A DNA stretch of 64,000 bases, taken from Lentisphaerales bacterium. GTDB lineage: Bacteria > Verrucomicrobiota > Kiritimatiellia > JAUXFM01. The position numbers were made by a program, and so were the translations under genes. The stretch covers positions 4,185-68,184 of the forward strand of contig JAUXFM010000001.1 of NCBI GenBank assembly GCA_030622955.1, read 5' to 3'. The notes under the pieces were generated by a model that was given only the letters and a program-made list of their open reading frames with translations, made no database searches and was not told the DNA's origin. This document shows, one piece after another, positions 8,673 to 30,403 of this stretch (position 1 is its first letter; the number at the start of each line of letters is the position of its first letter).

Positions 8673-9464
8673 TTACAGACTGTTGCGATAGGCAGATGGT
8701 GACATGCCTACACGTTGCTTGAACTGGCGTGAGAAGAAGTAGATATCTTTATAACCCAGTTCTTCGGCAATCTGACCAACCGGTAGATCCGACTGTCGCA
8801 GCAGTTCGCGTGCGCGCGTGACGCGAGAATCTATTACGTAGTTATGGATCGATATGCCCGTGACCCGCTGAAAATCGCGCCGAAGCGTGCTGACTCCTAT
8901 CCCCATGCGTTTCGCAAGCTTCCTGTAGTCGATCTCAAACGAAACCGAAAAGTCCAATTCGAGCAACACTCTATCGAGCCATTCATCCTGCTTCTCTTGC
9001 ATCGCCCTGCGCTCGGCCAAATCAATGAACAGACGCTCCAAGAGATTGACCGTGCGTGCATTTGTCCATCGCCCCCTGGCCTCGGCCGCAGCAAGTACTT
9101 CGTCGAACATCGCTTCATGTACTGATGCATCGCCAGGCTGCGGTTCGTGGAAGATCAGGCCCTCTGCAATCCAGTGCTGTACCTGTGGACCCGTGAATGC
9201 AATGTAACGATGATGCCAGTACTCGTGACCAGGCGCACAATGAAAGATCGTATGCGGCCCAGGGTAGCTCGGAAAGAACCAGCATCCCTCAAGGCGATAC
9301 CTGCGCGCATCATAGGAGATGTCTATGGCCCCGGCAGATATCATCTGAAGCACGTGATATCCCTCAAACCTCTTATCCACCCGCGCATCACAACGCGGCC
9401 GTTTACTGTAATGCAGTATGTTGAGCCCTATCATATAGTGCAAATGATATAACAGATATTCCAT
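8673..9464 (-). CDS. AraC-family transcriptional regulator
   Basis: The C-terminal double HTH 'IAEELGYKDIYFFSRQFKQRVGMSPSAYR' is typical AraC, and there is an N-terminal cupin-like sensor domain. Confidence 0.85.
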   Translation of the reverse strand: MEYLLYHLHYMIGLNILHYSKRPRCDARVDKRFEGYHVLQMISAGAIDISYDARRYRLEGCWFFPSYPGPHTIFHCAPGHEYWHHRYIAFTGPQVQHWIAEGLIFHEPQPGDASVHEAMFDEVLAAAEARGRWTNARTVNLLERLFIDLAERRAMQEKQDEWLDRVLLELDFSVSFEIDYRKLAKRMGIGVSTLRRDFQRVTGISIHNYVIDSRVTRARELLRQSDLPVGQIAEELGYKDIYFFSRQFKQRVGMSPSAYRNSL

Positions 9465-18061: not shown

Positions 18062-18733
18062 ATGCGCAAATATCTGTCGGTTAAGAATCTTGAACAGGCC
18101 CTGATATTGGCGAGTGTCTGCACCGTGATGTCGATACCACGCATGTCAATGGGCAAAATGCCGTTGCAGTGGTGTATCCCTTCCGCCGTCTGCTGCCTGA
18201 CACTTGTTGCCGGCGCTGCCACCGCATGGGGGAAGTACGCAGGACTCCCGGGCATCTTTCCGACTTCCCGGAGATCGCTGGTGGGCGTACTGGCGGCTAT
18301 CCTGCTGGGCCTGGTGTTCGTGCCCGTCAGAATGATGATGGATCCAACAGTGAAAGAGATCTTCGCCAGGGATCTTACGCCTGAAGCGATGTCTCTCATC
18401 TATCCCACAACACTAACGGGCTGCGTTGCGCTCGTGCTCTGGGCCGCGAGTTTCGGGGTGCTCTTCTTCCAGGCAGGCACGATCTCTTTCCTCGCACGGC
18501 TGACAGGCCGTAGGTCAATAGCCGTCGCCGGATCGGTTGCACTGCGGCTCTACGTGATGCACATGAAGATGGCCAGCAGAGAAGTGGAGTCCCTCCCCTT
18601 CATGCTGGCGGGGACCACCATAGTCGGACTGGTCACCGCCATGCTTTACATTAAAGGCGGGCTACCGGCAGCAATGGCCTTCGCTGCAACAGTTGATAGC
18701 AGACATTTCCTTCTACTCGCCGGAGAAGAATAG
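18062..18733 (+). CDS. Hypothetical polytopic membrane protein
   Basis: The ORF has 5-6 hydrophobic helices and no recognisable family. The start is at ATG 18062, after the tRNA. Confidence 0.4.
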   Translation: MRKYLSVKNLEQALILASVCTVMSIPRMSMGKMPLQWCIPSAVCCLTLVAGAATAWGKYAGLPGIFPTSRRSLVGVLAAILLGLVFVPVRMMMDPTVKEIFARDLTPEAMSLIYPTTLTGCVALVLWAASFGVLFFQAGTISFLARLTGRRSIAVAGSVALRLYVMHMKMASREVESLPFMLAGTTIVGLVTAMLYIKGGLPAAMAFAATVDSRHFLLLAGEE

Positions 18734-18908
18734 GAGCGGCGTGAAAGCAATGGCGGCGGGCGTTTCTCTCCTGGAAAGTGCCCCACCTGAATATCTGTCC
18801 GTGCGCGGGGAACAGTGGGCGCTTGGCAATAGCTTTGCCAACGTTGGAGATCGCAGTGGCCACCTCATCACCGACCCAGGTGATCTCTTTCGCCTGCTCT
18901 TTGAAATA

Positions 18909-18917
18909 GGGGGGGGG
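18909..18917. repeat. Homopolymeric G9 tract in convergent intergenic region
   Basis: Read directly. Confidence 0.9.
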
Positions 18918-18998
18918 CAGCCACTAGTGCTCGAGCGACTTGAGTGACCGGATCTGGTTCTTGAGCGCTGGATGTTATATTCATCACGCTGGGAATTC

Positions 18999-19718
18999 CT
19001 ATTTTCTGCGCAAGGCGCTGAAATGTTTCAGAACGGGCTCAAGTGTCTTGTAACTGTCAAGCGTTGTTGACACTATCAGGCGGCCTGCACCAAAATCATA
19101 GCTTGCAAATGCGCCTTCCGGAAACTTCGCACCTAATCCTTCGAAATACGCTTTGGCCGTTGTCTTCTTGATGCCCTGCACGCGCCACTGCTCTATGGCA
19201 TAGGTCCTGGTGAACAGACGCGGCGTGTCTTCTGTGGTCTCCCTGGCAAGGAGCACCGAGTTATTGCGTATCTTCACGGACAAGCCGCTCACCATTGCAA
19301 TTGTATTAAGCAGCTCCTCAAGGGTCATCGTCGACCCTGAGAACGTAATAGCGCCAACATTGTCATCCTTCTTGACGTTCAGGATGATGTTGACCCCTGT
19401 CTTGTCGGGATCCTGCGCCTTGGACTGATACCGGAGAAAGGTCACAACATCCTGCATGTCGGCCGCTCTGAAATCGATCTTCGGGATCTTTATGATCTTC
19501 AGCTTCTGCTCAACGGTCAATGTAGATTTCTTGATCTCATTCTTGGCTCTAACCAGCACGTATTCTTTCTTATCGACCAGGACCTTGGCGCCAGTCTTGT
19601 CACTGAACGGACCAAAGATCTTGCCAGTGCTCTTCTCCTGGAGGTAGAAGAGTTCAGCGCTCGCGAGTTGCGTGAAAATGACAAAAGAACAGACTGCAAA
19701 CAGTAAACATTTCTTCAT
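18999..19718 (-). CDS. Hypothetical secreted protein (signal peptide; Lys-rich; lower-GC gene)
   Basis: Signal peptide 'MKKCLLFAVCSFVIFTQLASA'. The gene is visibly more AT-rich than its neighbours. Confidence 0.5.
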   Translation of the reverse strand: MKKCLLFAVCSFVIFTQLASAELFYLQEKSTGKIFGPFSDKTGAKVLVDKKEYVLVRAKNEIKKSTLTVEQKLKIIKIPKIDFRAADMQDVVTFLRYQSKAQDPDKTGVNIILNVKKDDNVGAITFSGSTMTLEELLNTIAMVSGLSVKIRNNSVLLARETTEDTPRLFTRTYAIEQWRVQGIKKTTAKAYFEGLGAKFPEGAFASYDFGAGRLIVSTTLDSYKTLEPVLKHFSALRRK

Positions 19719-19912
19719 AGCGAATCTCCCACGAGACAGTAATTAGTTATAGCACAGGAAAGGTGAGCAGACAAGAGAGACGCAGGCGGTAGAGAATTTT
19801 TCAAGCGGCAACACACAAGTCGGAGCCAAAAGAAACTCTCGGCTCTTCACTGTAGGCCCCTATAAGGCATATTCGCCCTATTATGAGGAGAAGGATGCAT
19901 CAGCCACTCAAG

Positions 19913-20980
19913 TCACATCCCACGCCCCAGGAAGTCAACAGTGATGATCTCGGGCTTGCAATAGACGCGCAGCGGGGGTGATGATGCACCCAAACCTGAC
20001 GTCACGAACAAGTGCGTATCATCAAGCTTGAAATGACCATGACAGAAACGCCGCCCGTACTTGGACGGTATCACCAATGGCCCAATGAAAGGTAACCGCC
20101 CCTGCCCACCGTGAAAATGTCCGGCAAAAACCGCATCGGCCCCTGCCTCGCTCAAGTCGTAGATATTATCCGGCGTATGTGTCAACGCCAGCAGCAGATC
20201 GCCATTCGTTTTCTGAGGTAAACGGTAATCCTTGCAACCCCATGGTGCATCATACCCGCAGATGATCGCATTATGGTCACTCGAAATCGGCACTTTTGCC
20301 GTCTCTCCGCTGAGCAATATCAGCCCACACTCTCGAAGCGTCCGGGCAACATCATCGCCCCCTACCCAATGGTCATGATTGCCCAGCACGGCAAAGGTCC
20401 CGCATTTTGCCTTCATCTTTGCCAGAATCCCCGGCAGCAACGGAATCCAATGGTGTTCTGAAACAAAATCCCCGGCCATGAATATGACATCGGGCTCTGC
20501 CGCCACAGCACGTCGGAGCGCAGCCTTGTAGTAACTGATCGGAAACAGGTCATTAACATGCAGGTCGCTCATGAGCACAACCCTGAAGCGATCGAACTGC
20601 CATTTCTCGTTCCTGATCTCGTATCGACGTTCTGCGAGATCGAAGGTCGTAAAAGGTTTCACGAGAGAGATGTGCGTGTTGCTGCTTTCGACAGGCGCCG
20701 GCGCTGCGCACTGCCGCCCGAGCATCGCGTCGCGAATCTCGTTCAGGAGCAGGATGATCACTATCGCAATCGGGGCCCCGAGCCATGCAGAAAGCCCGAG
20801 ATAATACCCGCCGACCACTGGCGCAAGTACCAGTGCGGCAAGAAACGAGAGCAAGACCCAGCGCTTGGCATTACCATCGCACATGTGCAACAAACGTCGG
20901 CTGAACAGGACCATGTAGACGGTCATCCCGCCAATGCCGTACAAACCGGCCGCAAGAATGTTATCCCAATTTAGCATCAT
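19913..20980 (-). CDS. Membrane-anchored metallophosphoesterase (calcineurin-like, YkuE/YaeI-type)
   Basis: Three N-terminal TMs, then MPP motifs 'DLHVND', 'GDFVSEHHW', 'GNHDHW', 'GHFHGGQ'. Confidence 0.8.
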   Translation of the reverse strand: MMLNWDNILAAGLYGIGGMTVYMVLFSRRLLHMCDGNAKRWVLLSFLAALVLAPVVGGYYLGLSAWLGAPIAIVIILLLNEIRDAMLGRQCAAPAPVESSNTHISLVKPFTTFDLAERRYEIRNEKWQFDRFRVVLMSDLHVNDLFPISYYKAALRRAVAAEPDVIFMAGDFVSEHHWIPLLPGILAKMKAKCGTFAVLGNHDHWVGGDDVARTLRECGLILLSGETAKVPISSDHNAIICGYDAPWGCKDYRLPQKTNGDLLLALTHTPDNIYDLSEAGADAVFAGHFHGGQGRLPFIGPLVIPSKYGRRFCHGHFKLDDTHLFVTSGLGASSPPLRVYCKPEIITVDFLGRGM

Positions 20981-21258
20981 TCCCGTTCCTGTAATTTCCT
21001 TCTGACCACATAATAATCGAACAGCACATGGCCAATCCTTGCCAGTATCATACCGGGCAATGCCAGGGCCACCATGATTCTAACCAACAGGAAGAATCCT
21101 GCCAGCAAGAGGGTAGTCCCTGGCACATGCTCGCCAGCGGCGAAGATTACTGACATAACATTGTTCGCCGCAAGATAATGAATCAGAACAACGTGCAGGA
21201 AGAGCAGGCCAAAGATCTCAATGCAGCTCACAATCATCGTTTTCCGCCAGTTTCTCAT
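20977..21258 (-). CDS. Small hypothetical membrane protein (3 TM, 93 aa)
   Basis: Its start overlaps the upstream gene by 4 bp and its stop overlaps the downstream gene by 4 bp. This fits translational coupling within an operon. Confidence 0.45.
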   Translation of the reverse strand: MRNWRKTMIVSCIEIFGLLFLHVVLIHYLAANNVMSVIFAAGEHVPGTTLLLAGFFLLVRIMVALALPGMILARIGHVLFDYYVVRRKLQERE

Positions 21259-22448
21259 TGGCCGGTTCCCGCAGTTAACATGGCAAACATGATAGCGTCC
21301 CCCAGCGGACCGCCGACAACAAAATTGAATTTGTCCTTCTTCTTGAATGGTGCACCACAGACATACGCAGTACCGACCAACTTGGAATAGTAAATCTGAT
21401 CGCCATGGATCCTGCTACCAGAGATCAAGAAACCCGTGGGAGAAAGGCCCAGCCCACAGACAACTGGCCCGGAATCAATATCGCCGCATTGTTCCAACGG
21501 TTCCGCCGAGCCCGAATACTCCCTGACGCCACCAAAACCAAATATCGTTCGGGCAAGTGAACGACTCGTCGCGTCATAAAGATCCTCCGAGAATTCCATA
21601 TCCGCGAAAGAAAGAAAGTAGAGTCCAAGCGCCGTACCTGATCCACGCGGTTCGTCAACCGGCCTTCCATCAGACAGAACGCACTGGTAGAGCAAACCAC
21701 TTTCCTTATCGACATACCTCATCCGGCACGTCGCGACCCATTCGGCAAGGAACTCAGAGTGATCAACGCCACTGGCTTTTCCATGCAACCCGATAGAGCC
21801 TATGACTGCACAATTGTCCACTGGGTAATATTCAGAGGGATACGATTCTATGAGAGAGATATCACTCTGCTCTACCCGCTTCCTCAGAGCCCCGGTAATA
21901 CTGTCGTTCAAGTCTGCGTACTTGGAATCCGGATCCACGAGCCTATGAAGTCCAAGCACCATGTTGAAATAACCCAGGTATGCAGCATGCGCCGAGTCCT
22001 TTGATAGCGAGTCGATCGGATCATCACCCCACATCTCTCTATCGAACTTCCTGACCTCTTCAGAAAGTAATCGCTCAATACAGGCGTCCATCAGTCGCTC
22101 ATGTTTCTCACGTAATTCAGGGTGCGCTAGAGCAGTCTGGCCATACCCCATTGCCGCCATCGTGTAGGTGCCGAACAACCACTCGCCATTGAATTGGGAT
22201 GACCCCGTCGTGAAATCGTTTCTGGAAAGATCGGTCAGCAACCATTCCGCTACGCCATTTCCGAGCGCTCGATGTAGTTCCAGTTTGCCGTCATACCATT
22301 TGCCTGCGTCGCGACGTGCCCAGAAGCGTGGGAGCAAGCAGGAACCTATGACAAACAAGAGAATCCCGACCATGAATCTGAGAGCGCCAAGGCGCAGGCG
22401 CAGACCCAACGGAACAGGGCTCTTACCACATGTGCTTTTCTTGATCAT
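21255..22448 (-). CDS. N-terminally membrane-anchored protein with linalool dehydratase/isomerase (LDI)-like (alpha/alpha)6-barrel domain (paralog A)
   Basis: Blocks 'GEWLFGTYTMAAMGYG...ELR', 'WGDDPID...YLGYFNMVLGLHRLV', 'YPVDNCAVIGSIGL' and 'DIDSGPV' align, by recall, to Castellaniella LDI ('EAWEL...', 'WGDWEEDGFGTDPIE..YKGHLNLMYGLYQLV', 'NYFVQCNSVAYLSL'). The same ~330-aa domain recurs in the next large gene. Confidence 0.55.
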   Translation of the reverse strand: MIKKSTCGKSPVPLGLRLRLGALRFMVGILLFVIGSCLLPRFWARRDAGKWYDGKLELHRALGNGVAEWLLTDLSRNDFTTGSSQFNGEWLFGTYTMAAMGYGQTALAHPELREKHERLMDACIERLLSEEVRKFDREMWGDDPIDSLSKDSAHAAYLGYFNMVLGLHRLVDPDSKYADLNDSITGALRKRVEQSDISLIESYPSEYYPVDNCAVIGSIGLHGKASGVDHSEFLAEWVATCRMRYVDKESGLLYQCVLSDGRPVDEPRGSGTALGLYFLSFADMEFSEDLYDATSRSLARTIFGFGGVREYSGSAEPLEQCGDIDSGPVVCGLGLSPTGFLISGSRIHGDQIYYSKLVGTAYVCGAPFKKKDKFNFVVGGPLGDAIMFAMLTAGTGQ

Positions 22449-22724
22449 TCACATTTTCCGCCGTAACCCCTCAATCCACAGCAAGCTTCCTGCGATGACA
22501 AAGATGGGGGCAAGAACAATGCCGCCGAGATACGCGACGACATAGGTAAGGCCTAATATAGCCGACAGATACTGCCCTGATCCTGCCGCACCTACGGTGC
22601 CGCAGAGGATGCTCGTGTAATTCCTGAGCCCGAACAGGTCGCACAGGACAAGGAACAACACCAGTAGCACAGCACGACCGAGAAGGCCACCTGTCGACAT
22701 AAACTTGCTTCTGCCCGTCTTCAT
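22449..22724 (-). CDS. Small hypothetical membrane protein (2-3 TM, 91 aa)
   Basis: Tightly packed between the two LDI-like genes, with a 4-bp overlap with the upstream gene. Confidence 0.45.
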   Translation of the reverse strand: MKTGRSKFMSTGGLLGRAVLLVLFLVLCDLFGLRNYTSILCGTVGAAGSGQYLSAILGLTYVVAYLGGIVLAPIFVIAGSLLWIEGLRRKM

Positions 22725-25075
22725 CTCGCCCCCCTTGAACTCAGATCACCATCGCACCTGCGCTCGATAAGATCCCACAATGGCCCCATCACCATTGCGT
22801 AGAGCATAACCGCGTCGCCAACCTGATTACTCGCGCAATAGCGAAGTTGCCCCTTCTTTTCGATCGGGAACCCGCCAAACTCCAGGGATGTGAGCAGATC
22901 CTGGAGATACGAGAAATCACCAAAAGCACTCGCACCAACGAAGGCCAATCCACTAGAACCGGCACTTATCTCTACAATAGGTATTACAGGACCCGAATCA
23001 ATATCCACCGGGCTGCGCCATGATTCAGGCCATTCCTTTGCATAGCCACAGCCGAACAACGTCTTGCCAAGTTCTTTCTTCGCACGCCGGTACTGATCTT
23101 CGGCAAATTCTCCGTCAACGAGTTGCAGGCAATGAGCTGCCAGCCAGATAGATGATCCTTCGGGCCCATCGAACGGTGTCCCATCGAACCCATAACTGGA
23201 GATGAGCAAACCCGTATCTGAATGTACCAGTTCCTGTTTTGCCGCCTTGATCCATTCGTCCAGGAACTCGCTGTGATCAAGCCCATCGAGAGCATCTGAA
23301 GCCTTGATGGCTGCCAGTGCTATGGAATTGCAGAAGACCCAGCATTCGTTGGGATAGCTCTCACCTGAGAACACAGGACTTTGCTTCATACATTTCACCA
23401 TGAGCTCAACCCGTTCCTGGAGGAGCGGCTTGTATTCCGACTTCTCTTCGACAAGTCTGCGCGCCGCCAGCATCAATGCAATCTCGCCGTCTTGAAAGAT
23501 GCTTCGGCCGGGTTTTGCAACGAAATTGCCCGTCCTTGCGTAGTCCAGGAGGAAGTAATAGATACCATGCTCCTTCTCAAGGCGAATGGTCTCGTCGATT
23601 ATTGAGTCCATAATATCGAGGTAGACGCCTTTTGATGACGGCTCACGCAACGCCATGTTGCTCAACGACAGAACGAGGAAGGTCCGCCCCATGAAATCCC
23701 ACTCAGCATTGCTCGCCCGCATCCTGGTTATCTCCTCCTTGCGCAGTGATGGATTCGACCATAGCTCGATATGTCTCGATGCGAGCGCATGCGCTTTGGG
23801 CGGGATGTTCTTTCCTCCAAAGTACTCATACACATCCTGCTTGAAGAAGATGTGAAGGCTGGGCAACCAGATGGCCGTAGCAATCCCCAACGCCAACAGC
23901 CCTTTCCCAATCCGATGTGCCCTCTCCGAAAAGCTCTCTTTCTTTGCATCGGCAGGCCGTAGAGTTTTCGCCATTCCTGTTTTTTTGCAAAAAGCATCGC
24001 ATACCAATTCTGCGATCACCGCGCATTCCAATCCAAACGGCAGGTAGCCGGCATAACCGAGTATCGGCATTTCGAACAATGTGAGCTTGTGCACGAACGG
24101 TACTTCGTAGATCCATTTCGCGACACTGAAGAAGTTCCACATCTCCCACAAGAACCCGCAGATCAGGGCTGCCATGGCAAGAAGGTAGAGCTTACGCCAC
24201 TTCCCTTTACTGATCCGCGCAAAGATCGTGGCTTCACCGCAGATGCATCTGAGCGCGGTCATGATGCATAGCGGCGAAAGCCAGAGCAGGGGAAATAGAT
24301 AACTCGGGTACAGCCCGATCAACGCAAGACCTCCAGCAGAGATGCTAAGTATCGGCCATGCCAGCGTGCGTGGATCCCGAGCTTCGATCCTTGCAAAATC
24401 GTCCAGTCCGGCCCCGATACGCGGATAGGAGTCGAGCAGTTCGTATGTCCCCATCACCGCCGGCAGGACTGTAGAAAACGGGAGTGTCGCGAAAAGGAAG
24501 TATTGGAGTGATGACAGGTCCTGTATGCCTTCGTAGTACCAGTTCTGTACGAATCGATTGAGATATTCGAAGAACCACCAGAACACGGCGCTGAACAGGA
24601 AGAGCAATATGAAATATTTTGGGCGATCCTTTAGCATACAGCGTCCTGTACGCCGGAGCGTCAGGCCGTTGATTACCAAGACATAGCCGAACCAGATCGG
24701 ACTAAACGTGAACTGCTGGAACGGGGCGAACCATGTGAACCTGTTCCACGCGAGCAGCCAGGTCGTGACTATGAGCACCAGGCCAAGCCAGCCCCACCAG
24801 GGAAACGCAATCTTCAATGAGCTGCCCGGATCAATGTTCTTCCGCCATTTGTAGACTCGTATATCGAATGGCAAAATTACCGCCAGCAGCATGACCGCGA
24901 GCGCAACGAAATGGATCCAGGAGAAATCCGCATGGGGCACGTACCAGGTCAAAGGCGGAAACTCGGCATATTTCGAGATCGACACCCCCTTGATCCAGAC
25001 CCCGATGAGCGGCAATCCGATCAGCATCGCGAGTGAGATACCGAGCCATAGAGCTCGTCTGACTCTTCCACTCAT
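22721..25075 (-). CDS. Fusion protein: ~440-aa Trp-rich polytopic membrane domain + C-terminal LDI-like (alpha/alpha)6-barrel domain (paralog B)
   Basis: The N-terminal half has ~10 hydrophobic helices rich in W/F/Y. The C-terminal half ('DHSEFLDEWIKA...DTGLL...DGPEGS...EFAEDQY...VDIDSGPV...NQVGDAVM') is clearly paralogous (~35% identity) to 21255-22448. It retains both LDI-like Cys positions ('NEC...FCNSIA'). Confidence 0.6.
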   Translation of the reverse strand: MSGRVRRALWLGISLAMLIGLPLIGVWIKGVSISKYAEFPPLTWYVPHADFSWIHFVALAVMLLAVILPFDIRVYKWRKNIDPGSSLKIAFPWWGWLGLVLIVTTWLLAWNRFTWFAPFQQFTFSPIWFGYVLVINGLTLRRTGRCMLKDRPKYFILLFLFSAVFWWFFEYLNRFVQNWYYEGIQDLSSLQYFLFATLPFSTVLPAVMGTYELLDSYPRIGAGLDDFARIEARDPRTLAWPILSISAGGLALIGLYPSYLFPLLWLSPLCIMTALRCICGEATIFARISKGKWRKLYLLAMAALICGFLWEMWNFFSVAKWIYEVPFVHKLTLFEMPILGYAGYLPFGLECAVIAELVCDAFCKKTGMAKTLRPADAKKESFSERAHRIGKGLLALGIATAIWLPSLHIFFKQDVYEYFGGKNIPPKAHALASRHIELWSNPSLRKEEITRMRASNAEWDFMGRTFLVLSLSNMALREPSSKGVYLDIMDSIIDETIRLEKEHGIYYFLLDYARTGNFVAKPGRSIFQDGEIALMLAARRLVEEKSEYKPLLQERVELMVKCMKQSPVFSGESYPNECWVFCNSIALAAIKASDALDGLDHSEFLDEWIKAAKQELVHSDTGLLISSYGFDGTPFDGPEGSSIWLAAHCLQLVDGEFAEDQYRRAKKELGKTLFGCGYAKEWPESWRSPVDIDSGPVIPIVEISAGSSGLAFVGASAFGDFSYLQDLLTSLEFGGFPIEKKGQLRYCASNQVGDAVMLYAMVMGPLWDLIERRCDGDLSSRGAR

Positions 25076-25113
25076 AGCAAACCCTCTGTCAACGACATGA
25101 AACAGGACATGAA

Positions 25114-25380
25114 TTAGTCATCTTTGCTTTTCTTCTTCGCCCACCTGGTACTGATTGCAGTCACGAGCATGCAGAAACACATGACCCCCGCCCCGATCAA
25201 CAACCCTGCGAGCAGGCCCGTTGCGGCTGCATATCGCACGATCTTAGTTGCGCCGGTGAACAGGCACTCACTGGCGAATTCCGGTGAGATCAATGCGAGT
25301 ACAACTCCAAAGATCGAACCCAGCAATGCCGAGAACAACGCCGCCCCCAACACGTACAAGAAACCTATTACTGCTTTCAT
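25114..25380 (-). CDS. Small hypothetical membrane protein (2 TM, ~88 aa)
   Basis: A GGAGGGA RBS precedes the ATG at 25380. The product is hydrophobic with a basic tail. Confidence 0.45.
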   Translation of the reverse strand: MKAVIGFLYVLGAALFSALLGSIFGVVLALISPEFASECLFTGATKIVRYAAATGLLAGLLIGAGVMCFCMLVTAISTRWAKKKSKDD

Positions 25381-25496
25381 TTCTTCCCTCCTTCTTTCTT
25401 TATAATAGATCAACCTATTTGTCTTACTCGCGGGGACCCGACTACGCTCAGACATGGCTTCATCGCGGCATGCCGCCGTCTCCATCTTGCATGAGA

Positions 25497-26210
25497 TTAA
25501 CCGAGAGCGCCACACCATGCGCGCCACAAGTATTCATAGAAGTTACTGCTAAATGCGTTCGGGTTAAAGAACGGGACCGGCATATCCGGGCGCGCCAGGT
25601 ATGGACTCATCAGCCATGAGAGTTGGCAACCGGCGAACCCGGACACCAGTATCCACGCCGCCAACACTCGCCCTGCGAGAGCGCGCGAACCTGTCAACAA
25701 TCCCAGCAGCTTGTATAATCGAACGTTCCCCACAATGCCGCAGGCGCCAATTACTCCGGCATGCAGGGTGAGTAATGTCCTATAGACAATCATCGCTGAT
25801 GGCGCCGTGTGATCCGGCACCTGTGTCACTACGAACAGCGCCACCGGACTCAACCCACCAAGAAGCATGGATGTGATCGCAAATGCTACCAGCATCGCCA
25901 CAAGCACTTTCTTCATGGAAAGGTCCGCGCCCATAACTCTTGCCAACATGTAATTGATAAGCGTGCTTACGATCACGACCGCGACTATAAGGAGCGGCAT
26001 CTTCAGTAATGAATAGCAGGCTTGCCTCGCCGAGCGCCAGATACCAAAGACAGCTCCATACGGGATGGTCCCGGCAGCGATCGCAAGACAGCATCCCGTG
26101 ATAATCGATCGAATCTGATTTTCAGACTTGATCCCCTGAAGCAGCCGATCGTCCATGCGACAGATAGGGCCGGGCCCGTAATCAGTCCAGCTCTGTAGAA
26201 TACTTATCAT
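25497..26210 (-). CDS. Hypothetical 5-6 TM membrane protein (Yip1-like architecture)
   Basis: Hydrophobicity pattern. It overlaps the upstream gene by 4 bp. Confidence 0.4.
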   Translation of the reverse strand: MISILQSWTDYGPGPICRMDDRLLQGIKSENQIRSIITGCCLAIAAGTIPYGAVFGIWRSARQACYSLLKMPLLIVAVVIVSTLINYMLARVMGADLSMKKVLVAMLVAFAITSMLLGGLSPVALFVVTQVPDHTAPSAMIVYRTLLTLHAGVIGACGIVGNVRLYKLLGLLTGSRALAGRVLAAWILVSGFAGCQLSWLMSPYLARPDMPVPFFNPNAFSSNFYEYLWRAWCGALG

Positions 26211-26974
26211 TCGAAACTTCTGAATATGTGCGTAATGAATGATTTCTTCCCCTGCAATCTGAACCCATCGTACTCACCAATAAGCGGACGGAGCACAGTG
26301 CACATCTGCAGGGCTACCAGCACAAAGATGATGCTCCACAACCTGACAAGTTTCAGGCTGCGCTTGTTGAGGAGCAGAAATGCTTTCTTGAGGAGCTCCA
26401 ACCCGAAGCCCATGCCGACCAGCCAGAAAAGCAGGTGCGTGAATCCCATGAAGCCGATGGTATCGGTCGATTGCGAGAAGATCCATGCGACCGGCGCAAA
26501 CCCGATCAACAACAACGAGCTGAGCGCAAGCGTCGCCAGGAGCAGATTCCAGACCTGCGAGAATGACTGATCGCCTCCGCAAATGCAGGAGAAGATGTAC
26601 AGGCTCGGCAGGCATATGAGTGCACTCGCGTAGAGCCCGATGGTCACCTTCAAGGGTGCCATCCATAGCTGGTGTCCCCCTGAAAAGAATCCCATCACCA
26701 CACCATAGCCGATCATGCAAAGCGATATGATCAGAAGCAATGAGGCACAGACTCCCCGCGAGTTGCCCTTGATGATCTCGTAGATCACGCGTGCAGGACG
26801 CTTGAGGATTTCCTCGATTACTGAGGTGGTCGCCGTGCCTTTTTCCATCGGCTCGAAATTGCTCTCGAAGCCCTTCTTGTCACTCGGAGGTATCGATGGC
26901 GGCTTTGCTGCAAAACAATCCCCGGCCTCTTTCATCGTTCCGCGTATCTTCTCAACATAATCCTCGTCCTGCAT
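26207..26974 (-). CDS. Hypothetical membrane protein with ~75-aa cytoplasmic N-domain + 5 TM (Yip1-like architecture)
   Basis: Hydrophobicity pattern. It is first in the overlapping pair. Confidence 0.4.
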   Translation of the reverse strand: MQDEDYVEKIRGTMKEAGDCFAAKPPSIPPSDKKGFESNFEPMEKGTATTSVIEEILKRPARVIYEIIKGNSRGVCASLLLIISLCMIGYGVVMGFFSGGHQLWMAPLKVTIGLYASALICLPSLYIFSCICGGDQSFSQVWNLLLATLALSSLLLIGFAPVAWIFSQSTDTIGFMGFTHLLFWLVGMGFGLELLKKAFLLLNKRSLKLVRLWSIIFVLVALQMCTVLRPLIGEYDGFRLQGKKSFITHIFRSFE

Positions 26975-27063
26975 CGCACCCTCCTTTTGCGGCTACCCAC
27001 AAAGTGCTTTGTTTCGCAAAGCCATCAAGCAACAAATATCTCGTGATGTCATGATTGGGTTCC

Positions 27064-27447
27064 TTAAGCTTTCACTGCCCTAGTCAAAAATGCGGTGAGG
27101 TCTTTCTTCTTCTCCGCTGGCATTGCAGCGGCGGCACCCTTCAGAACTTCGGAGAGAGCGCTGAGGTATTCACTGAAGCGATCCAGTCCTTTGTCTGAGA
27201 GGCCAACGGTCGTTCGCGGTTTCGAATCGACAAATGATTTCCTTATCTTAATCACCTTCGCTTCCTCGAGGACCTTGAGATGGCGGTTCAGATTGCCGTC
27301 GGTCAGGTTGCACTGCTCTTTCAATTCCGTGAAGGAAAGTCCTTCCTGCGCTCCGCAGAGCGCTGACATGATCGAGAGTCTATTTGGTTCATGGAATATC
27401 TTCTCAAGCGCTTCATATGGATTCTGATTATCTTCTTTGCGTTTCAT
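27064..27447 (-). CDS. Winged-helix transcriptional regulator (HTH_34-like)
   Basis: 'LSFTELKEQCNLTDGNLNRHLKVLEEAKVIKI' is a classic wHTH recognition helix plus wing, 127 aa. Confidence 0.65.
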   Translation of the reverse strand: MKRKEDNQNPYEALEKIFHEPNRLSIMSALCGAQEGLSFTELKEQCNLTDGNLNRHLKVLEEAKVIKIRKSFVDSKPRTTVGLSDKGLDRFSEYLSALSEVLKGAAAAMPAEKKKDLTAFLTRAVKA

Positions 27448-27459
27448 GATCTTCGCCCT

Positions 27460-28092
27460 TCATTTCTTGTTGAATTGTTTTTCAAATCGATTCGAACCGT
27501 GCAGGACTATGCCTCCGATGGTTTCGCCGGCACAGAACGCTATTCCCATCGGCCAGGGATTGAGAAAAGAGACCTGCGTGGCGAGACAGAATGCGCCAAA
27601 GAGAATGTAACCAAGCCCAATAATGTAGATAGGCCGTGGCAGTGAGAGCCGGTACGCCACCTGGGCAAGTCCATACAGGCACATCCAGATTCCTAAAAGA
27701 AGGTCGTATTGCCCCGCAAGGATAACAGCCACGCTCAGCACGGCCCCTACTACAAGAGCGGGGATGGCATCAATGGCAGGTTTCGCCTGTCGGAAATCGC
27801 GCTGCACGACAGGATTGAAGAGGAACCAGTATGCGAGTGCTCCGTAGTTAAGAACGAGCGCAAGGGTGAGGATGATACCCCACCCGATCAGGTGTGCGTT
27901 CGGTATTGCAGGCACTTCGCCAGAGTCCAGGACGGCTGCGCCAGCTAATGCTCCGAGTCCTGAAATGATGCGTGCCGGACCCGAATAGCCTTTGAAAAAC
28001 CTCTTTTCGAGCACGTATTCCTGGACTTTTCTGACCTGTGCCAGCGCATCATGTATATGATTAGCTATCATCTCATCCAGATCGTATCCCAT
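27460..28092 (-). CDS. Hypothetical membrane protein (4-5 TM)
   Basis: Hydrophobic ORF immediately upstream of the wHTH regulator on the same strand. Confidence 0.4.
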   Translation of the reverse strand: MGYDLDEMIANHIHDALAQVRKVQEYVLEKRFFKGYSGPARIISGLGALAGAAVLDSGEVPAIPNAHLIGWGIILTLALVLNYGALAYWFLFNPVVQRDFRQAKPAIDAIPALVVGAVLSVAVILAGQYDLLLGIWMCLYGLAQVAYRLSLPRPIYIIGLGYILFGAFCLATQVSFLNPWPMGIAFCAGETIGGIVLHGSNRFEKQFNKK

Positions 28093-28300
28093 CGCAAAGT
28101 ACTTTGCAACACAAAGTTTTGGCTTTTTTCAAATTGGCCAGCAAGCAAGGATATTGCGTGATTTCCCCGCCTTTGGGATTGATTGAGATAGGGCTGATAG
28201 GATAGGCTTCCGGCCATATGCGATCCCCCGGAGGGCAAATGTGCCCCTCTTGGTTAATTTTTTCGCATATCTCAAGATTCACTTAATAAGGGAGGAAACG

Positions 28301-30403
28301 ATGAGAACTGATCTGATACTTGGCTCACTCGCCGCAGGTGTTGCGGCCCTTGTCTTCGCCGTATGGAAATCAGCATGGGTCAACAAACAGGACGCGGGCA
28401 CAGATAAAATGAAGGAAATCGGCGCCGCAATCCGTGATGGCTCTATGGCTTTTCTTTCTCGCGAGTACAAAGTACTTGGCATATTTGTCATCGCAGTCGC
28501 CGCCCTCCTTGCCTGGGGCAACTCATCATGGGTTAGGCTGGTTGCAGTTTCTTTTGTTGTTGGTGCGGTCTGCTCGGGTATTGCCGGCTTCTTCGGTATG
28601 CGCGTTGCAACGGCAGCCAATATGCGCACAACCCAGGGCGCACGCTCCGGCCTTTCCAAGGCGCTCCTCGTTGCTTTCTCAGGTGGCGCGGTGATGGGAA
28701 TGTGCGTGGTCGGACTCGGAATAGTTGGCTTGGCCACTCTTCTCCTTGTCTACACCCGCATAATTCCTAACGGTACATCGATTGAAGTCCTTCAGAGCAC
28801 CGTTCTTCCGATCGTCAATGGTTTTGCCATGGGTGCATCATCAATCGCACTCTTCGCACGTGTTGGTGGTGGCATCTATACGAAGGCCGCAGACGTTGGC
28901 GCAGACCTCGTCGGCAAAGTTGAAGCCGGCATCCCTGAGGATGATCCCCGCAACCCGGCCACCATCGCTGACAACGTTGGCGATAACGTGGGTGATGTTG
29001 CAGGCATGGGCGCTGACCTCTTCGAATCGTATGTTGGTTCGATAGTAGGTTCAATGGTGCTCGGCGCCGCCGCCGGCTCAGTAGAACTTGTGGTCCTCCC
29101 GCTCGTCATAGCAGGCGCTGGAATCATCGTTTCCATATTCGGCACTTTCTTCGTTAAAGTGAAAGAAGGTGGCAGCCCACAGGCCGCATTGAACGTAGGA
29201 ACGTTCGGCGCAGGAATCGTAATGGCGCTGTTGACTTATCCCCTCGTCCTGAAACTTGCACCCGCAACATTTGAGTATGCCGGTGTGACCTATCAGGCCA
29301 TCGGTATCTTCTGGGCAACGATCGCTGGCCTTGCTGCTGGTATTGCAATCGGTATGTTGACGGAATACTACACGGCGGAGAATCGTGGTCCGGTACGTAA
29401 GATTGCCAAGGCAGCAGAAACTGGCGCCGGTACCTGCATCATTGCAGGGCTCGGCACTGGAATGCTTTCCACTGCACTTCCGGTGATCTGCATTGGTGCG
29501 GCCATCATGGTTGCTTATCACTTTGCCGGTCTCTACGGCATAGCGATCGCAGCGCTTGGCATGCTGGCAACCACCGGCATCCAGCTCGCAGTTGATGCCT
29601 ATGGTCCAATCGCGGATAACGCAGGCGGCCTGGCCGAGATGGCGAAACTGGAACCCGAAGTGCGCAAGCGCACCGACAAGCTCGATGCAGTTGGCAACAC
29701 GACGGCAGCTATCGGCAAAGGGTTTGCCATCGGCTCAGCCGCGCTTACCGCATTGGCTCTGTTCGCAGCGTTCCGCACGACTGTTGGCATTGAGACGATC
29801 GATGTAACGAAGCCGACCATCATGGCTGGCCTGTTCCTCGGTGCAATGCTTCCCTTCCTGTTCTCATCATTCGCGATGGGCGCAGTTGGACGCGCAGCTT
29901 TTGCGATGATCGCTGAGGTCCGTCGTCAGTTCAAGGAAATCCCCGGCCTGCTGGCAGGCACAGGCAAAGCCGACTACGCCAAGTGCGTTGACATTTCCAC
30001 GGCAGCAGCTATTAAGGAAATGATCGTTCCTGGTCTAATCGCCATACTCACACCGGTCGTCGTAGGAATCGGCGGTGGTTACTTCCTTGGTTACAGGGAA
30101 GGCGCGGAGATGCTCGGCGGCGTGTTGGCCGGTGTTACAGTATCCGGCGTTATGATGGCGCTCTTCATGTCCAACGCAGGCGGCGCATGGGACAATGCCA
30201 AGAAATATATCGAAAGTGGTGCACTTGGCGGCAAGGGCTCAGAAGCGCACAAGGCAGCGGTGACTGGCGACACAGTCGGCGATCCTTTCAAGGACACCGC
30301 CGGTCCCTCGCTCAACATTCTTATCAAATTAATGAGTGTTGTTTCGCTGGTACTGGCCCCTATCCTTGCACGGTTGGCGGCTGCCGCTGCTAACGGAATG
30401 TGA
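28301..30403 (+). CDS. hppA: Membrane-integral pyrophosphatase, K+-dependent type (H+/Na+-translocating PPase)
   Basis: A GGAGG RBS precedes the ATG at 28301, and the product is ~700 aa with 16 TM. '[18 protein letters not shown]' has Ala at the K+-dependence determinant position (K+-independent enzymes have GNTTKA). Confidence 0.9.

Follow-up and report, generated by a model that had tools for sequence, protein, structure and literature searches.

What do five successive minus-strand genes of a Kiritimatiellia genome do, and do they belong with the linalool dehydratase/isomerase (LDI)-like operon that begins directly behind them? The genes lie at positions 28092-25114 of a 64,000-nucleotide (nt) stretch, hereafter the window, of contig JAUXFM010000001.1 from a Lentisphaerales bacterium. 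A preliminary description, made from the letters of the DNA and a table of its open reading frames (ORFs), took them for a winged-helix regulator at the head of a run of membrane proteins that might form one functional unit with the genes at 19913-25075. We suggest, with a probability of roughly 60%, that the best explanation is a regulatory module: the first two genes, A and B, would act through an operator-like palindrome, CTTTG-N5-CAAAG, on the next two, C and D, and on the LDI-like genes downstream. All five ORFs were present where they had been placed, and the 38-nt gap between the end of E and the start of the 784-amino-acid (aa) LDI-like gene at 25075 was confirmed. The order that had been given (a membrane protein, a winged-helix protein, two overlapping proteins and a micro-protein preceded by GGAGG) was also accurate apart from the corrections below, the first of which is that membrane protein A, and not the regulator, heads the run. 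The elements of the locus, including a 116-nt spacer between D and E, are these:

28095-28116, minus strand: operator-like motif O1, CTTTGTGTTGCAAAGTACTTTG, upstream of A.
28071-27460 (from 28092 in the ORF table), minus strand: gene A, a polytopic membrane protein of 203 aa (210 aa from 28092).
27447-27064, minus strand: gene B, an ArsR-like winged-helix regulator of 127 aa with the Pfam domain HTH_34, 12 nt after A.
27000-27021, minus strand: operator-like motif O2, CTTTGCGAAACAAAGCACTTTG, in the 89-nt spacer between B and C, ending 25 nt before the start codon of C.
26974-26207, minus strand: gene C, a membrane protein of 255 aa with five transmembrane (TM) helices, ribosome-binding site AAAGGAGGG.
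26210-25497, minus strand: gene D, a 237-aa paralogue of C, with an ATGA start/stop overlap with C.
25380-25114, minus strand: gene E, a hydrophobic micro-protein of 88 aa, with GGAGG 6 nt before its ATG.
19913-25075, minus strand: the downstream block, with genes for proteins of 784, 91, 397, 93 and 355 aa, spaced from a 4-nt overlap to adjacent.

The palindrome was found by aligning the regions upstream of A homologues, and it was followed through two sets of related loci. One set, gathered with C, comprised 80 genome loci, nearly all from Verrucomicrobiota; the other, gathered with A, comprised 80 metagenome loci and three long contigs, all of a Kiritimatiellia type. Gene families at these loci were defined by clustering all of their ORFs. 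Upstream of A the consensus is AAACTTTGTnTTGCAAAGTACTTTGC, which contains three half-sites, CTTTG-N5-CAAAG-N2-CTTTG, and the motif holds this O1 position in 73 of 79 Kiritimatiellia-type loci. In 33 of 55 loci a second copy, equivalent to O2, stands within ~420 nt beyond the end of B, directly before the next gene. Which gene comes next varies: it may be C, E, the polytopic membrane domain that we call Nmem, a radical SAM enzyme, DgkA or a family labelled f14. Related loci totalling 730 kb contain 75 copies of the tripartite motif, 74 of them on the operon strand, and shuffled sequences contain none. Within the window there are exactly two perfect copies of CTTTG-N5-CAAAG, one before A (28102-28116) and one before C (27007-27021). 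In 1.15 Mb of Verrucomicrobiota loci a 17-bp form, ACTTTG-N5-CAAAGT, occurs 92 times, against no occurrence in shuffles, and essentially all of these sites stand ahead of the A-like gene, of ispH, or of D/C where these are found apart from A-B. The site also precedes stand-alone C-D pairs, in loci L081-L083 and in Brevifollis (L053). A dyad-symmetric site that recurs at the operon of a regulator and at a few genes located with it is what comparative genomics commonly takes as the mark of a transcription factor that regulates itself together with a regulon.

At 28107-28094, within O1, lies a perfect 14-bp palindrome, GCAAAGTACTTTG C. A -35-like TTGCAA (28109-28104) overlaps it, and TACGAT follows 17 nt downstream; we infer from this that O1 overlaps the A-B promoter and that the A mRNA would be nearly leaderless here. 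A scan of the region for sigma-70 promoters and terminators scored no better than shuffles, and no Rfam RNA element was found in 18500-28600. Three further observations concern the surroundings of the motif. Across the Verrucomicrobiota loci (L001-L080) the palindrome often ends 5-8 nt before the A-like ATG, for example at 5824 in L007, 4981 in L043 and 6244 in L063, which points either to leaderless transcripts or to an operator lying over the start site. In L046 two operator copies, at 9003 and 9256, lie between a D-C pair and a divergent 540-aa gene with an LDI-like gene, and the same regulator may drive both directions. In the window itself a gene that resembles H+-translocating pyrophosphatases, as judged by eye from the translation, runs divergently from A at 28241-30403 (plus strand); its table start, GTG at 28241, is probably too early, and the real start looks to be MRTDLILG, ~20 codons further on. 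O1 falls in the intergenic region common to this gene and A, so B could in principle affect the former too.

The suggestion of one functional unit with 19913-25075 gains support, in the form of a regulon, from the common cis-element and from gene content in related genomes. We counted 34 A-B loci with at least 4 kb of downstream sequence, the window and L004 included; about 27 of them carry an Nmem homologue and/or an LDI-like domain, and about 11 carry C-D. Other genes that recur downstream of A-B encode CreD, a B12-binding radical SAM enzyme, an M50 peptidase together with an ATP-grasp protein, DgkA, and E. The Verrucomicrobiota operon typically runs A-like, B, IspH, D, C and then a 172-aa membrane protein, with IspH in 44 of the 80 loci, B in 42 and the A-like gene, whose family is homologous to A (hhalign 96.7%), in 41. 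The neighbouring IspH scores 213.5 bits against NCBIfam TIGR00216, where the equivalog cut-off is 187.85, and matches Pfam LYTB at 3e-67. LDI-like genes accompany C-D in only ~8 of these 80 loci. Gene order is fluid, with C-D in some loci and D-C in others and E in three positions, and the gene set persists. In L081, the genome of the closest C homologue, and in L053, C-D has neither A-B nor LDI genes nearby, yet it stands behind the palindrome; conversely, L084 and L086 have A-B with LDI genes and no C-D. Homologues of these genes are thus linked rather than scattered and, on gene content, the functional unit is modular.

The preliminary description had recognised no function in any of the five genes. 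That stands for A, C, D and E, none of which has a Pfam or NCBIfam match, although all five are conserved genes rather than spurious ORFs. It does not stand for B, which matches Pfam HTH_34 (PF13601) at 75.3 bits, far over the cut-off of 27 (E 4.3e-21, profile positions 2-79 of 80). The closest solved relative of B is PH1061 of Pyrococcus (1ub9), to which residues 17-104 align at E 3e-10. PH1061 shares the HTH_34 domain and has no assigned regulon or partner; B differs in a ~25-aa C-terminal extension and in belonging to a clade that is invariably paired with A and with CTTTG-N5-CAAAG. B lies within 300 nt after A in 63 of 68 Kiritimatiellia-type loci and overlaps it in 2 more, and in L084-L086 the two coding regions overlap by 11-17 nt. 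From the placement of the motif we consider that B is probably an autorepressor that binds O1 and O2.

Gene A has 475 homologues at 55-68% identity and 47 invariant alignment columns. Its product is predicted to have an N-terminal helix followed by six TM helices, with a conserved helix motif, MIANHIHDALAQV..GYSG.AR, and the AlphaFold model (predicted local distance difference test, pLDDT, 88.5) has the same arrangement. All 23 aligned homologues begin with MIANHIHD, and the candidate ATG further upstream, at 28092, lies right against the conserved operator-like palindrome; the most likely start of A is therefore 28071. The alignment also shows a conserved His-x-His-Asp and conserved polar intramembrane residues. 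Neither A nor the 23 homologues matches Pfam SdpI, and their only matches, to DUF4010 and DoxX_2, are marginal. Of all the genes in these loci only A is always found with B, often overlapping it translationally, and we therefore propose that it may be the signalling partner of B and a membrane sensor.

In the mechanism that we suggest, a dimer of B would bind the inverted repeat CTTTG-N5-CAAAG, to which the Kiritimatiellia type adds an N2-CTTTG half-site. Binding at O1, over the putative A-B promoter, would make the A-B pair autoregulated, and binding at O2 would govern C-D-E and, probably, the entire LDI-like block as far as 19913, because no further operator or terminator-like site was found between C and the genes of that block. 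A would sense the state of the membrane or of envelope lipids and would control B, perhaps by retaining it at the membrane in the way that SdpI retains SdpR, and C and D would work as a heterodimer.

Most winged-helix proteins of the ArsR/MarR type sense their ligands directly, and B might do the same, responding to a metal, to redox state or to a soluble metabolite resembling hydroxymethylbutenyl diphosphate (HMBPP) or isopentenyl diphosphate (IPP). A would then be the first regulated membrane protein, for instance a transporter or a protective protein, and its His-x-His-Asp and polar intramembrane residues could equally serve transport. B does align weakly with ArsR/SmtB metalloregulator and BigR models. 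However, it falls below the cut-off of every metalloregulator model in NCBIfam, reaching 35.5 bits against HTH_metalloreg (NF033788), where 55 are required, in an alignment that covers the helix-turn-helix core (residues 16-70). Moreover, A and B are almost never apart and often overlap, while every other regulated gene varies, which is the pattern expected of interacting partners. We therefore consider direct sensing by B an unlikely account of the locus, if one worth keeping in mind.

A closer precedent for the proposed A-B circuit is found in Bacillus subtilis, where the membrane immunity and signal protein SdpI sequesters SdpR, an autorepressor of the ArsR family (PMC2910880). In both systems a small polytopic membrane protein is co-transcribed with an ArsR-type winged-helix regulator, there is an apparent autoregulatory operator at the pair's own promoter (predicted here from the conserved palindrome), and the membrane protein sets, or in our proposal would set, the amount of available repressor (PMC2910880). 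A-B differs in having no Pfam SdpI domain, a B far below the SdpR cut-off, a reversed gene order and no toxin partner. Furthermore, B apparently also controls a second, large and variable operon through O2, as well as ispH in Verrucomicrobiota.

The same likeness could be taken literally, A detecting an external membrane-active toxin or peptide and the downstream genes repairing the envelope with no role in isoprenoid metabolism. A ~200-aa protein with six TM helices next to an ArsR-type autorepressor does match the SdpI/SdpR architecture, and the envelope-associated CreD, M50 peptidase and Band_7 proteins do occur downstream. An immunity module of this kind seems improbable to us, since B scores 19.2 bits against the SdpR model (NF033789), where the cut-off is 100, A lacks the SdpI match, no toxin gene lies nearby, and the housekeeping-type ispH that shares the operator across Verrucomicrobiota fits toxin immunity poorly. 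PADLOC and PHROGs searches returned only generic winged-helix matches, and a defence-system or phage reading was rejected on that basis.

That the five genes and the LDI-like operon are unrelated neighbours kept together by inherited synteny, with the motif as a lineage-specific promoter element, would suit the lone C-D pair of L081 and the scarcity of LDI genes beside C-D in Verrucomicrobiota, but it is very hard to credit, because the dyad symmetry of the palindrome speaks for a dimeric regulator and not for a sigma factor, the motif is confined to these genes (the window has no perfect site beyond O1 and O2) and follows them when they are rearranged or unlinked, and membership persists while order is shuffled.

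Several points weigh against regulation by an A-B module as we have described it. A factor other than B could bind the motif, and A could be merely the first regulated gene and not a sensor; no relation of A to SdpI could be detected, and the order here, membrane protein first, is opposite to that in sdpRI. O2 went undetected within ~420 nt after B in 22 of the 55 loci. In the window O2 has no convincing sigma-70 hexamers and ends just 25 nt from the start of C; its action may be that of a roadblock, or it may serve a promoter type outside the scan. The isoprenoid theme that we consider below rests on mixed neighbours, since CreD, the M50 peptidase, the ATP-grasp protein and Band_7 are among them too, there is no ispH in the 64-kb window, and the operator-linked ispH may not be the sole ispH copy in the genomes that have it. 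Finally, the models of A and C have no informative relative among solved structures, and profile searches of the sequences in the Protein Data Bank (PDB) with the A and C alignments came back empty.

The presumed targets nearest to O2 are C and D. C has more than 3,500 homologues, which form 1,904 clusters at 50% identity, and its family has 26 invariant columns, polar intramembrane residues among them. In the AlphaFold model of C (pLDDT 85.7) a low-confidence N-terminal region of ~45 residues belongs to a cytoplasmic N-terminal part, and a bundle of five TM helices follows (72-97, 105-131, 138-170, 173-202 and 208-227, pLDDT mostly >85). This is the layout of the Yip1 family (PF04893; Yip1/Yif1 and bacterial proteins of the Yip1/DUF1282 type such as YknW), and C and D had been described as having Yip1 architecture. 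The five helices bear this out, and one of 31 C relatives aligns with the Yip1 profile nearly end to end (positions 4-169 of 173); yet at 26.1 bits it stays below the cut-off of 28.6, none of nine D relatives matches, and the C and D of the window match no Pfam model, Yip1 included. The best 150 representatives listed contained no distant members that would connect the C family with bona fide Yip1 proteins. C and D also depart from Yip1 in their signature motifs (ICLPSLYIF, GFAPVAWIFSQST and LQMxTxLRP in C), which are specific to the family in the Planctomycetes-Verrucomicrobia-Chlamydiae (PVC) group. Architecture is thus a fair term for a distant, sub-threshold likeness to Yip1, one that falls short of placing C and D in the family.

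C and D are paralogues (BLASTP E 8e-8), and D adjoins C in 77 of the 80 genome loci, the other three being cut by contig ends. Natural D-C fusions occur in two database proteins, P0262 (507 aa) and P0288 (491 aa), in which one extra TM helix joins the halves; this helix restores topology, so that D and C would lie parallel in the membrane, and the fusions support a parallel D-C heterodimer. Yip1 and Yif1 likewise act together as two paralogues. We suggest that C and D most likely form a heterodimer and that their ATGA overlap couples them translationally.

The ORF table lists gene E as a 137-aa frame from a GTG at 25527, which extends it upstream into D. The credible start, implied by the preliminary description, is the ATG at 25380 behind GGAGG, which gives the 88-aa protein. 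Homologues of E at 28-36% identity are found between O2 and C in L091, after D in L104 and before the Nmem gene in L107; E is a variable component of the cluster, though one that recurs.

The first gene of the downstream block (22721-25075, minus strand) encodes the 784-aa protein, in which an Nmem membrane domain (residues 1 to ~380) is fused to an LDI-like domain. The C-terminal half matches the linalool dehydratase/isomerase profile of Pfam (Ldi, PF18566) at E 7e-6 and 26.1 bits, exactly at the cut-off. It differs from linalool dehydratase/isomerase in that the LDI-like domain here is fused to, or adjoins, a 360-aa membrane domain of no known family; in L086 the two halves are separate adjoining genes. 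Nmem is usually a stand-alone protein of ~365 aa with more than 5,000 homologues, all hypothetical proteins that have neither names nor domains, and it belongs to no Pfam or NCBIfam family. It is also the commonest gene downstream of A-B. The 397-aa protein is a second LDI-like copy, without a Pfam match of its own, and the 355-aa protein that ends the block at 19913 is a membrane-anchored metallophosphoesterase resembling YaeI and LpxG. Beyond it, after a 194-nt gap, the product of a gene at 18999-19718 (minus strand) has 239 aa, an N-terminus like a signal peptide and a weak FecR_C match (E 0.004); it has no homologues in the related clusters.

Some of the recurrent neighbours in other genomes can be characterised further. 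The B12-binding radical SAM gene lies ~1-5 kb after A in L096, L101, L102, L110, L120, L121, L123 and L156, directly behind an operator copy in L102 and L121, and the best NCBIfam similarities of its product, to HpnJ and BchE, are far below the cut-offs. A DUF1361 membrane protein (Pfam 2e-40) is encoded immediately after C in L019, L020 and nine other Verrucomicrobiota loci, between C and the LDI-like gene, where it occupies the Nmem position of Kiritimatiellia-type loci. Families f14 (252 aa) and fam6 (172 aa) have no Pfam or NCBIfam assignment. The thought that f14 is a protein of the polyprenol-kinase type was a guess from its sequence; Pfam and NCBIfam scans did not confirm it, and it was dropped.

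What such a regulon would be for is a matter of circumstantial evidence. Isoprenoid or other envelope-lipid handling is our leading guess, because ispH, LDI-like domains of a terpenoid type, DgkA and a lipid-type phosphoesterase share the regulon; the CreD, M50 peptidase and Band_7 neighbours point more broadly to envelope homeostasis. The apparent co-regulation of LDI-like proteins with membrane proteins argues for a membrane-lipid substrate over monoterpene catabolism. A further step, which we offer tentatively and would not ourselves expect to hold in full, is that A-B is a membrane-to-DNA feedback circuit common to Verrucomicrobiota and Kiritimatiellia. A would report the state of isoprenoid lipids to B, and B would set the levels of ispH and of lipid-handling membrane proteins, namely the C-D heterodimer and the Nmem/LDI-like enzymes.

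The regulatory logic proposed here, an autoregulated winged-helix repressor with a membrane partner, is already known in kind. We came across no account of this system in the literature searched, and family A, the C-D family, the Nmem family, the operator sequence and the composition of the regulon, including ispH across the phylum, appear to be undescribed there. What was a block of hypothetical membrane proteins becomes, through this analysis, a defined regulon with a candidate regulator, a candidate sensor, a precise operator and core targets, conserved across two PVC classes in which few regulators have been characterised. It also brings together four large families for which Pfam offers no model, namely A, C, D and the Nmem domain, which together amount to thousands of sequences. 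IspH catalyses the last step of the methylerythritol phosphate (MEP) pathway and, if its link to the operator is regulatory, the locus would provide an entry point into the poorly understood bacterial control of that pathway and of membrane isoprenoid lipids. Should the feedback circuit prove true, A-B would be a bacterial counterpart, in its logic, of sterol-sensing control, and B would be among the first transcriptional regulators to be described that are dedicated to isoprenoid synthesis in bacteria.

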